From an uncultured Candidatus Saccharibacteria bacterium (GTDB taxonomy: Bacteria > Patescibacteriota > Minisyncoccia > RBG-13-40-8-A > JAUWHN01), in the NCBI GenBank assembly GCA_964426965.1, contig CAYRSI010000001.1, positions 1 through 47,797 on the forward strand: 47,797 nucleotides of DNA. Reading direction: 5' to 3'. The notes below the pieces were generated by a model that saw only the letters and a program-made list of their open reading frames with translations, did no database searches and was not told the DNA's origin. The position numbers and the translations under genes are program-made. Below are positions 104-27,644 of the stretch, piece after piece. Position 1 is the first letter of the stretch. The number at the start of each line of letters is the position of its first letter.

Positions 104-176
104 TAGCTTTTTAGCTTTTTAGCTTTTTAGCTTTTTAGGAATTCTAAGAAGCTACAAGCTACAAGCTACAAGCTAG
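104..176. repeat. AGCT-word spacer element, copy a: (AGCTTTTT)x4 - GGAATTCTAAGA - (AGCTACA)x3
   Basis: Tandem 8-mers at 105-136 and 7-mers at 150-170 read directly. The reverse complement shares an identical core of about 49 nt with 7981-8053. Fills the rpsQ|rplN spacer. Confidence 0.9.
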
Positions 177-419
177 TTATAGTACTATCCATCTTTTATC
201 TTTTGAAATCGGCCTGCTCTCCTGAATCGTTACTTTGTCTCCAATCTTATACCTGTTGTCAGGATCATGAGCTTTGTATTTCTTATTAATTTTATAACGT
301 TTTTTATAGCGCGGATGTTGTTTTAATCGCTCCACCAAAACAACAATGGTTTTATTCATTTTATCAGAAATCACTATTCCCTTTAAAGTTCGTTTAATTG
401 TTTTCTTTTTCTTTTGCAT
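177..419 (-). CDS. rpsQ: 30S ribosomal protein S17
   Basis: 80-aa [32 protein letters not shown] is the S17 core, and the operon position fits. Confidence 0.95.
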
Positions 420-601: not shown

Positions 602-1009
602 TTATCTCTTAACAAATCTAGTTTTGATTGGTAATTTATAGCTAGCCAAGCGCATTGCTTCTTTTGCCATTTCTTCAGTAACGCCATCCATTTCAAAAAT
701 AATCCTTCCGGGTTTTATTGAAACCACATAATGATCCACGCTTCCTTTTCCTCCGCCCATAGGCACTTCTACTCCTTTTGTAGTTTTGGGCTTATCCGGA
801 AAAACCCTTATCCAAAGTTTTCCTCCCCGCTGAACATATCTAGTTATTGCTCGACGAGCTGCTTCAATTTGACGAGCAGTCAACCAAGTCTCTTGTTCTG
901 CCTTTAAGCCAAAACTGCCGAAGTTTAATTTGGCTCCACTTCTTGTCTTGCTTGTTCTAGATCGACCCTTATTCCATTTTCGATGTTTGACTTTTTTGGG
1001 TTGAAGCAT
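602..1009 (-). CDS. rplP: 50S ribosomal protein L16
   Basis: Start moved to ATG 1007-1009 ([16 protein letters not shown]...), which is the L16 core. The upstream part of the track ORF lies in the repeat cassette. Confidence 0.95.
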
Positions 1010-1561
1010 GTTAGTTCGCTTCGCGAACGGGTGAAATGGATGATCGCTCACTCCGTTCGCTTGGGGGATCGGTCCGCAACTGCGAACCTTGGATGAAATA
1101 GATTACTTTATTAAAAATTTTCTATATGCTTGGAGTTTAAAGAATAATTTGTCTAGTGTCGGTAAAATTTTCTTAAAATCATTTTGAGAAATATAGCCTA
1201 GTTTACCAGCTAAAATTAGACAGGCTTTTACTTCTAACAATGAGCCTATGCTCTGGCTAATAAATTTAGCAAAGTCTTTTTTAGTATTTTTGCCACTTCC
1301 TTCAGCGATATTTAAAACAATCGAAATAGCTGCTCGTTTTATCTGTGATGTTAAACCAAATAATTCCTCTTTAGGAAATTTCTTAGCCAGTTTATAAATC
1401 TCCAAAACAAAATCATTGGCTAAATGGTAAATATCTAATGTTTCAAAATGATATTTTTTGTATATGGGATTTTTTATTTACGATCATTTCAACCAAACGA
1501 GCGGAGCGAGTGATCAACCATCAACCAAATCGCCGAAGGCGATGATCAACCAGTTCGAGTA
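1010..1561 (-). repeat. IVS-like inverted-repeat cassette, copy 1 (cargo: four-helix-bundle gene)
   Basis: Flanks 1010-1102 and 1406-1561 are built from TTGGWTGATC/GATCAACCA words plus GC hairpins (1014-1028 GTTCGC-TTC-GCGAAC, 1529-1543 ATCGCC-GAA-GGCGAT). Same architecture as 4002-4472 and 27472-27919. Confidence 0.85.
1103..1405 (-). CDS. four-helix-bundle protein (23S rRNA intervening-sequence protein family)
   Basis: FPKEELFGLTSQIKRAAISIVLNIAEGSGKNTKKDFAKFISQSIGSLLEVKACL is the family signature (QxxRAAxSIxxNIAEG...GS). The frame stays open upstream to 1477 without any ATG/GTG/TTG, so the true 5' end is uncertain. Confidence 0.85.
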   Translation of the reverse strand: MEIYKLAKKFPKEELFGLTSQIKRAAISIVLNIAEGSGKNTKKDFAKFISQSIGSLLEVKACLILAGKLGYISQNDFKKILPTLDKLFFKLQAYRKFLIK

Positions 1562-2209
1562 CTACTCGAACTTCTCCCCTTTATATACCCAGACTTTTAC
1601 TCCAATTACTCCATAGGTAGTGTAAGCATTAATATAAGCATAGTTGATATCAGCTCTAAGGGTTTGGAGAGGAACCTTTCCTTTTCTTAACCATTCTTGT
1701 CGAGCCATTTCTGTTCCACCAAGTCTGCCAGCAACAGAAATCTTGACTCCTTTAACGTCAGGGTCTTGAATAACTTTATCTAAAGTCTGCTTAATTACTC
1801 GCCTAAACGGCCTTCTTCTTTCAAGTTGTTCTGCAATGTTCTGAGCAATAATTTCAGCATGGGTTTCGGGTTTTCTTATTTCCTCAATGTCTATTTTTAT
1901 ATCCAATCCCTTGGTTTGCCCTTTAAATATTTTGCTGATTATTTCTCTTTTTAAATCCTGAACCCCTGCTCCTCCTCTTCCAATAATAATTCCTGGCCGA
2001 GCAGTATAAATTTTAATATTAAGTAAATTAGCTGAGCGAGTAATCTCAATTTCTTTTATTGCTGTCTGCTTTAATTTAGCTATAATAAACTCTCGCAGCT
2101 TGTAATCCTGCTTTAAAAACTCCTTGTATTTCTTTTTATTAAACCATCGAGACTTCCAATCGGCAGTATAACCTAATCGAAAGGCCCGTGGATGAACTTT
2201 ATGAGACAT
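1562..2209 (-). CDS. rpsC: 30S ribosomal protein S3
   Basis: MSHKVHPRAFRLGYTADWKSRWF... with the GRLGGTEMAR motif. Operon position fits. Confidence 0.95.
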   Translation of the reverse strand: MSHKVHPRAFRLGYTADWKSRWFNKKKYKEFLKQDYKLREFIIAKLKQTAIKEIEITRSANLLNIKIYTARPGIIIGRGGAGVQDLKREIISKIFKGQTKGLDIKIDIEEIRKPETHAEIIAQNIAEQLERRRPFRRVIKQTLDKVIQDPDVKGVKISVAGRLGGTEMARQEWLRKGKVPLQTLRADINYAYINAYTTYGVIGVKVWVYKGEKFE

Positions 2210-7980: not shown

Positions 7981-8053
7981 TAGCTTCTTAGCTTGTAGCT
8001 TGTAGCTTCTTAGAATTCCTAAAAAGCTAAAAAGCTAATTCCTAAAAAGCTAG
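7981..8053. repeat. AGCT-word spacer element, copy f (opposite orientation to copy a)
   Basis: TAGCTTGTAGCTTGTAGCTTCTTAGAATTCCTAAAAAGCTAAAAAGCTA equals the reverse complement of part of 104-176. The arms can fold as an imperfect hairpin around GAATTC. Confidence 0.9.
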
Positions 8054-8123
8054 ATTAGTTTTCAATGATTAGTTTAACGTTTATTTTAAAATATGTCAAC
8101 TATCTTTGACGTTTTCGACCTTT

Positions 8124-27566: not shown

Positions 27567-27603
27567 TTACTTTATTAAAAATTTCGAAATGATATTTTTT
27601 GTA
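27567..27603 (-). pseudogene. four-helix-bundle gene remnant with internal deletion (5' 19 nt fused to last 5 codons plus stop)
   Basis: 27567-27584 matches 1103-1120 (KFLIK*). 27585-27603 matches 1444-1462 (the KKYHFE region) with 1 mismatch. Confidence 0.75.
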
Positions 27604-27644
27604 CATAGAATTGACAAATCTATCTCTTTTTCTCTTTCATAGAT

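Follow-up and report, generated by a model that had tools for sequence, protein, structure and literature searches.

The closest described counterparts of the gene analyzed here are the S23p-type (PF05635) open reading frames (ORFs) found in 23S rRNA IVSs of Coxiella burnetii, Leptospira, and Xanthomonas (XCC0516, PDB 2GSC), which encode proteins of the same family. As in a 23S IVS, the complementary ends of the element form a long stem, and our ORF occupies its loop. Unlike those IVSs, which occupy helix 25 or 45 of 23S rRNA, the cassette described here lies in an mRNA spacer, between rpsC and rplP, and related cassettes occupy several operon spacers, with hairpins that lack cargo existing as well. 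IVSs are excised by RNase III; the counterpart of this feature known here is the presence of an RNase III gene (rnc) in the genome. The S23p ORF of the Coxiella burnetii IVS is reported to lack expression in vivo and to have undergone reductive evolution near its start codon (PMC4990558). That decay around the start codon parallels the start codon lesion in our gene.

Further points of comparison come from noncanonical starts, start codon loss, and fold. Escherichia coli infC and pcnB both begin with AUU, a near-cognate start that their orthologs share and that serves regulation. Our gene is like them in having an AUN codon where its frame must begin, and IF3-type discrimination would keep its expression low; it is unlike them in that all of its relatives and paralogs have ATG, so its non-AUG start is unconserved. 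With start codon-loss pseudogenes of reduced genomes it shares a single initiation codon transition, an intact accessory gene, an AT-rich genome, and degraded sister copies; unlike established examples, it shows as yet neither a second lesion nor relaxed constraint, and its status as a pseudogene is one that we infer. The DGR accessory protein Avd/bAvd (PDB 4DWL, 8UB7; PF22296) adopts the same four-helix-bundle fold (TM about 0.75 to 0.79), with a weak bAvd Pfam match (E = 0.0012, 19.8 bits versus a cut-off of 40). No reverse transcriptase or template/variable repeats were seen adjoining our gene, which rpsC and rplP flank directly.

We propose that an IVS-like cassette in the rpsC-rplP spacer carries a PF05635 gene in the loop of its hairpin and that the real start of this gene would be codon 1465-1463, ATG in the ancestor and turned into ATA by one transition. 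Full-length protein could then come only from near-cognate AUA initiation, and the loss of the start would represent the first step of a decay that has run its course in cassettes 2 and 3.

A hairpin-bracketed cassette between rpsC and rplP

The window (the whole 47,797-nucleotide [nt] stretch of DNA analyzed) belongs to a 0.93-Mb genome assembly of 120 contigs, estimated as 92% complete. On its minus strand it carries a ribosomal protein operon in the order tuf, rpsJ, rplC, rplD, rplW, cassette 2, rplB, rpsS, rplV, rpsC, cassette 1, rplP, rpmC, and rpsQ (features of the cassette 1 region are given in Table 1). A 552-nt rpsC-rplP spacer is unusual because the S3-L16 gap measures 18 nt or less, mostly 1 to 6 nt, in 20 of the 27 relatives that have both genes on one locus, in agreement with the expectation of the initial annotation that this junction is normally a few nucleotides long. 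Spacers of 32 to 216 nt occur in the other 7 relatives; those of L030, L046, L048, L052, and L056 (72 to 216 nt) have an unrelated repeat-like filling of cgaat/ttcggat units, tagctataagct units, and hairpins, so the junction seems to take up small elements repeatedly. The ORF lister gives rplP a 149-amino-acid (aa) GTG call (to 1051) that reaches into the 3′ arm of the cassette (window 1010-1051, minus strand), and gene callers on the related contig L022 likewise extend rplP to a GTG in the cassette 3′ arm.

Table 1. Positions of the cassette 1 features, neighboring genes, and the cassette 3 relic in window coordinates
Feature	Position	Strand	Basis or remark
rplP (L16)	602..1009	-	True start ATG 1009-1007; Pfam Ribosomal_L16 spans residues 4-133 of the ATG form
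Cassette 1, hairpin-bracketed IVS-like intergenic cassette, the whole rpsC-rplP spacer	1010..1561	-	552-nt gap, shared ends, fold
Terminal hairpin GTTCGCGAAGCGAAC	1014..1028	-	4 nt upstream of the rplP ATG; -7.3 kcal/mol
3′ stem arm core CCAAGCGAACGGAGTGAGCGATC	1042..1064	-	Partner of 1515-1493
Four-helix-bundle (PF05635/S23p-type) coding frame	1103..1465	-	120 codons plus TAA, intact except for the first codon
TTG, Leu21 of the 120-aa protein (residue 25 of the 124-residue frame)	1403..1405	-	Start chosen by ORF lister and gene callers
ATA, mutated ancestral start codon of the four-helix-bundle gene (probable)	1463..1465	-	DNA and protein alignments, start codon table, cassette 3 relic
In-frame TAA closing the four-helix-bundle frame upstream	1478..1480	-	Sequence
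Out-of-frame ATG in conserved arm motif GGTTGAAATG	1485..1487	-	Opens a 14-codon frame ending at TGA 1445-1443
5′ stem arm core GATCACTCGCTCCGCTCGTTTGG	1493..1515	-	Pairs with 1064-1042 at 21/23 positions, two of them G-U (hand count)
19-nt palindrome GTTCGAGTA-G-TACTCGAAC	1553..1571	-	Exact; centered on the last base of the rpsC TAG
rpsC (ribosomal protein S3)	1562..2209	-	Stop TAG 1564-1562; Pfam KH_2 and Ribosomal_S3_C
Relic of the gene in cassette 3	27582..27612	-	ATG (27606-27604) and 7 codons, joined to the final codons of the gene

The ends of cassette 1 are common to cassettes 2 and 3 and to cargo-less copies elsewhere in the genome. The two stem arm cores form the closing stem in both the minimum-free-energy and the centroid predicted folds and enclose the ORF; the fold of the whole cassette has z = -5.4, compared with z = -9.5 for cassette 2. 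The terminal hairpin is kept wherever a cassette 3′ end was located, that is, in the three window copies and in L021, L022, L138, L219, and L221. No promoter-like site or terminator was found inside cassette 1, and therefore its gene is presumably cotranscribed with the ribosomal operon. Almost nothing of the four-helix-bundle gene is left in cassettes 2 and 3.

The spacer ORF matches Pfam PF05635 (23S_rRNA_IVP) with E = 2.2e-34 and 118.3 bits against a cut-off of 33.8, over profile positions 1 to 102 of 106, confirming the family membership suggested by the initial annotation. An AlphaFold2 model built on the homolog alignment has four long helices (pLDDT 95.1) and superimposes in Foldseek on Xanthomonas XCC0516 (2GSC; TM 0.89, rmsd 1.2 Å) and on 2RLD (TM 0.78). 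Named homologs of the gene come from Patescibacteria/CPR groups. The possibility that the paralogs on short contigs reside in rRNA as IVSs was dismissed: Rfam gave no rRNA match for the window or for the small contigs bearing PF05635 paralogs.

Position of helix 1 and of the start codon

Upstream of the TTG, the frame stays open for 24 codons to the TAA at 1480-1478 and reads IKNPIYKKYHFETLDIYHLANDFV; these codons include ATA twice and ATT once and contain no ATG, GTG, or TTG, just as the initial annotation described. In the AlphaFold2 model, helix 1 comprises residues 10 to 31 of the 124-residue frame opening at 1477 (10 to 13 and 15 to 31) and thus begins 15 residues before the TTG. Profile position 1 of PF05635 falls on residue 12 of the same frame, and the sequence alignment to 2GSC extends over the N-terminal stretch upstream of the TTG. 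The F-E-x-L-x-[IV]-[YW] pattern that had been recognized in this stretch is real (F11, E12, L14, I16, and Y17 are encoded): an alignment of about 30 homologs shows no variation at Y9, F11, E12, or Y17 and at least 90% conservation of L14. Of the best 120 database homologs, 119 have an N terminus that reaches residue 8 or further upstream, P0060 (at L218) being the only one that does not, and the possibility that helix 1 begins at or after the TTG therefore fails. The helix 1 motif lies upstream of the only canonical start, and its inclusion in the product depends on initiation at ATA.

The exceptional homolog (L218:1172-1528) is 62% identical and lies downstream of an ABC transporter gene. Its N terminus reads ATG AAA TAT GTT AAA TAT AAT TTT GAA AAT TAG, with an in-frame TAG at codon 11, and the gene call there is a 103-aa protein that begins at an internal ATG. 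This second, independent lesion of an N terminus within the clade indicates that such damage does occur among these genes.

Close homologs begin with MYKKYHFETLD..., aligned exactly at ATA 1465-1463. All 10 close homolog loci (L021, L022, L222, L220, L221, L026, L138, L139, L140, and L219; 79 to 93% aa identity) have ATG at the position of this ATA or one codon upstream (ATG CCA TAC, ATG GCT TAC), and none of the 10 starts with ATA or ATT. The first six of these could be placed and represent four kinds of site: the L23-L2 spacer (L021, the nearest homolog, with 93% aa identity), the S3-L16 spacer (L022, L222), the S17-L14 spacer (L220, L221), and a position between glycosyltransferase genes (L026). 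Within the genome itself, all seven other PF05635 paralogs have ATG 5 to 15 residues before the motif. The relic in cassette 3 reads ATG TAC AAA AAA TAT CAT TTC GAA where copy 1 has ATA TAC AAA AAA TAT CAT TTT GAA; in the alignment of 27582-27612 with query 110-140, position 27606 stands opposite 1465.

In the simplest history, an ancestral ATG would have become ATA through one transition, G to A in the coding strand and C to T at plus-strand position 1463, and the gene would lack a normal start codon because of this one base. C-to-T type transitions are the commonest kind of mutation in AT-rich genomes. The puzzle posed by the start then has an ordinary answer, a one-base lesion, and no new mechanism of initiation or processing is needed. 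Both the ATA and the A6 run upstream of it are identical in two JGI/IMG metagenome contigs, 3300028837 (54,262 nt) and 3300008516 (25,772 nt), with 0 differences over 4209 nt; these contigs were found by exact look-up of the S3 protein and have end points different from those of the window contig, and the samples are possibly not independent. The JGI gene caller also gave the 100-aa TTG product on these identical contigs. This annotation is wrong for the window and for those contigs alike: the correct model is an S23p-type gene of 120 codons that opens with ATA.

Constraint on the gene and competing readings of its start

Across the 10 homologs, dN/dS is approximately 0.02 to 0.07, with synonymous sites near saturation. 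Against L021, 46.5 of 70.8 synonymous sites differ but only 8.5 of 271 nonsynonymous sites (pS 0.66, pN 0.03). The window gene has the shortest terminal branch (0.064) among 11 sequences in a maximum likelihood tree and no private amino acid state beyond codon 1, compared with 1 to 7 private nonsynonymous nucleotide states in each of the other 10. Within the 120-codon frame there is no stop or frameshift, and no relaxed constraint is visible. This pattern indicates that purifying selection on the gene was strong up to the very recent past, an argument for some role of the protein, be it for the element or for the host. Given strong constraint with no private amino acid change, the start mutation must be either recent or tolerated. 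After true loss of expression, the first private replacement is expected at approximately 0.004 to 0.01 substitutions per site, or some 6 to 15% of the terminal branch; it is therefore not improbable to catch a copy that has lost its start and is otherwise pristine. Low pN/pS would fit very recent loss and continued function from AUA equally well, and the sequence by itself does not discriminate between them.

Copy 1 has no Shine-Dalgarno sequence, and its start region is unstructured and A/U-rich, as it also is in ATG-bearing homologs; the codon itself must therefore carry much of the recognition. Since no canonical start precedes helix 1 either, full-length product would be made only through AUA. 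In E. coli, AUA initiates at 1 to 2% (sfGFP) or 0.02 to 3% (NanoLuc) of the level of AUG (bioRxiv 10.1101/063800), and AUG starts are under purifying selection in prokaryotes (PMC5622118); E. coli start codon strengths may not transfer to an uncultured small-genome bacterium without Shine-Dalgarno-led initiation at this gene. Because AUA is weak and the TTG start would delete most of helix 1, the copy 1 gene is probably an incipient pseudogene or a severe hypomorph, silenced only recently or else strongly attenuated. These cassettes decay as a rule, the gene being nearly gone from cassettes 2 and 3 and nonsense mutated at L218. Copy 1 would on this account be a dated snapshot of cassette gene decay, and S23p-type genes in stem-bracketed cassettes of operon spacers, as opposed to 23S rRNA, can be followed through intact forms with ATG, start loss, nonsense mutation, and relics.

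Less likely, though a serious possibility, is that AUA 1465-1463 is a functional weak near-cognate start kept by selection, delivering a low but useful dose of protein from a highly transcribed ribosomal protein mRNA. The narrower version, in which AUA is a working, selected start that throttles an accessory protein on a very abundant mRNA, perhaps with RNase III cutting of the stem helping initiation, seems to us somewhat less likely again. NCBI table 11 counts ATA among start codons. The perfectly intact ORF, its shortest branch and lack of private amino acid changes, and the fixation of ATA in three assemblies are all compatible with such a start, as are the unstructured, A/U-rich context shared with ATG-bearing homologs and the measurable AUA initiation seen in E. 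coli. However, neither ATA nor ATT is used by any relative (ATG in 10/10 close loci and 7/7 paralogs), the N terminus covering helix 1 is kept by all but one of the best 120 database homologs, and the gene is gone from the sister cassettes of the genome. ATG has been retained by homologs in the same highly expressed spacers, an argument against any need for attenuation. If this reading were true, AUA initiation would occur naturally in a gene of an uncultured small-genome (CPR-type) bacterium, and an IVS-like mRNA element would provide an example of start codon tuning.

That the product is a 100-aa protein from TTG 1405-1403, an N-terminally truncated three-helix form, is very unlikely. This TTG is the first canonical in-frame start and the one that gene callers pick, but initiation there would remove 15 of the 22 helix 1 residues (about two thirds), 13 Pfam profile positions, and four invariant residues; the codon also has no Shine-Dalgarno sequence, lies within a local hairpin, and is preceded by codons that are still under constraint. 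Since the same codon is TTA in the relatives L022 and L026, the truncated form is unlikely to be functional. We give just as little credence to an assembly or consensus error, or a minor variant, hiding an ATG in the living population. ATA is a single-base difference in a metagenome-assembled genome, but it recurs in the two further contigs, which differ in length and ends, come from two IMG datasets (of possibly nonindependent samples), and are identical over the compared 4209 nt.

A start defined by RNA processing was considered and set aside. The ATA lies approximately 30 nt inside the loop, so that a cut in the stem would leave a leader of approximately 30 to 50 nt, and leaderless translation needs a 5′ AUG; such a start is unsupported for these two reasons. 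Of the three options raised by the initial annotation, noncanonical initiation thus survives as AUA initiation, possible and yet conserved in no relative, while the processing-defined start falls away and a functional TTG-truncated product is unlikely.

The out-of-frame ATG at 1487-1485 is no conserved gene start, because the frame that the ATG of the same arm motif opens in L021 and L139 is 5 codons long and terminates ahead of the gene's own ATG. Translation that begins at it and enters the gene frame through a +1 shift, or through slippage on the A6 stretch at 1475-1470 (where removal of one A would put MIVNKNPIYKKYHFE... in frame), can be practically discounted: the ATG belongs to a conserved stem arm motif, A6 is short for transcriptional slippage and is agreed by three assemblies, the homologs need no shift, and their leaders differ in length, with no conserved pairing of an upstream ORF and a slippery site as in programmed frameshifting.

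The S3 tail, cassette ends, and related spacer elements

The rpsC stop codon lies at the center of an exact 19-nt palindrome, as first noted in the initial annotation, which took the palindrome for the cassette edge and suggested that the insertion might have remodeled the S3 C terminus. The left arm consists of the last S3 codons and the TA of the stop (aaG TTC GAG TAg), and the right arm consists of the first bases of the insert, whose 5′ end reads TCGAAC followed directly by TGGTTGATC. The hairpin of the palindrome has a folding energy of -11.4 kcal/mol (z = -3.45). In the S3-L16 cassette of L022 this hairpin has 7 bp; L222, whose cassette also follows the S3 tail, has a different 5′ end without TCGAAC and without the hairpin, and cassettes at the L23-L2 site have no such hairpin. 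In our view, the element end pairs with the KFE codons by chance or under mild selection, and the palindrome is not a defining edge.

The S3 tail is unchanged. It ends in ...VWVYKGEKFE before the stop codon, and a relative of the same family with a 1-nt S3-L16 gap (G002, L029) has the identical tail VIGVKVWVYKGEKFE, encoded there as AAG TTT GAG TAA. Because this relative lacks the insert, the insertion did not remodel S3, and the suggestion to that effect is refuted by the comparison of S3 tails. In G004, S3 ends in ...KFQ and its stop, followed by CTAAC ATG CTT; the same TAAC ATG CTT follows the insert here, and the insertion landed between the rpsC stop codon and (C)TAAC ATG. A target site duplication at the cassette ends is unsupported, the empty sites in G002 and G004 being without CGAAC.

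Other contigs carry variants of the cassette. In the S3-L16 cassette of L022 (L022:1800-2150; also L023 to L025), approximately 330 extra nt lie between the 5′ arm and the four-helix-bundle gene, and a 69-aa ORF with no Pfam match is called there on the opposite strand. The contig of the closest homolog has, just upstream of rplD, a 210-aa call with a PF05635 match (L021:440-1072); the rplC-rplD junction there may hold a second cassette, or the call may be a fusion.

Cargo-less hairpin elements of 130 to 160 nt are found elsewhere in the source genome (C4:27248-27401, C63:390-543, C9:1812-1900, C108:625-750, and C20:~900-960). They occupy spacers, consist of GGTTGATCGCTTCGCTT-type units (5′ side) and CATTTCAACC units (3′ side), and close with a GTTCGCGAAGCGAAC-like hairpin (GTTCGCG-AA-GCGAAC-like) 3 to 5 nt before the ATG of the next gene. 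A second family of spacer repeats, built of TAGCTTG/AAAAGCT units (tagcttgtagcttgtagct ... gctaaaaagctaaaaagct), is located at window positions 119-180, 2800-2861, and 7989-8057, where it fills the rpsQ-rplN, rpsS-rplV, and upstream-of-tuf spacers. The last of these copies is in reverse orientation, its segment 7989-8038 being 100% complementary to 119-168.
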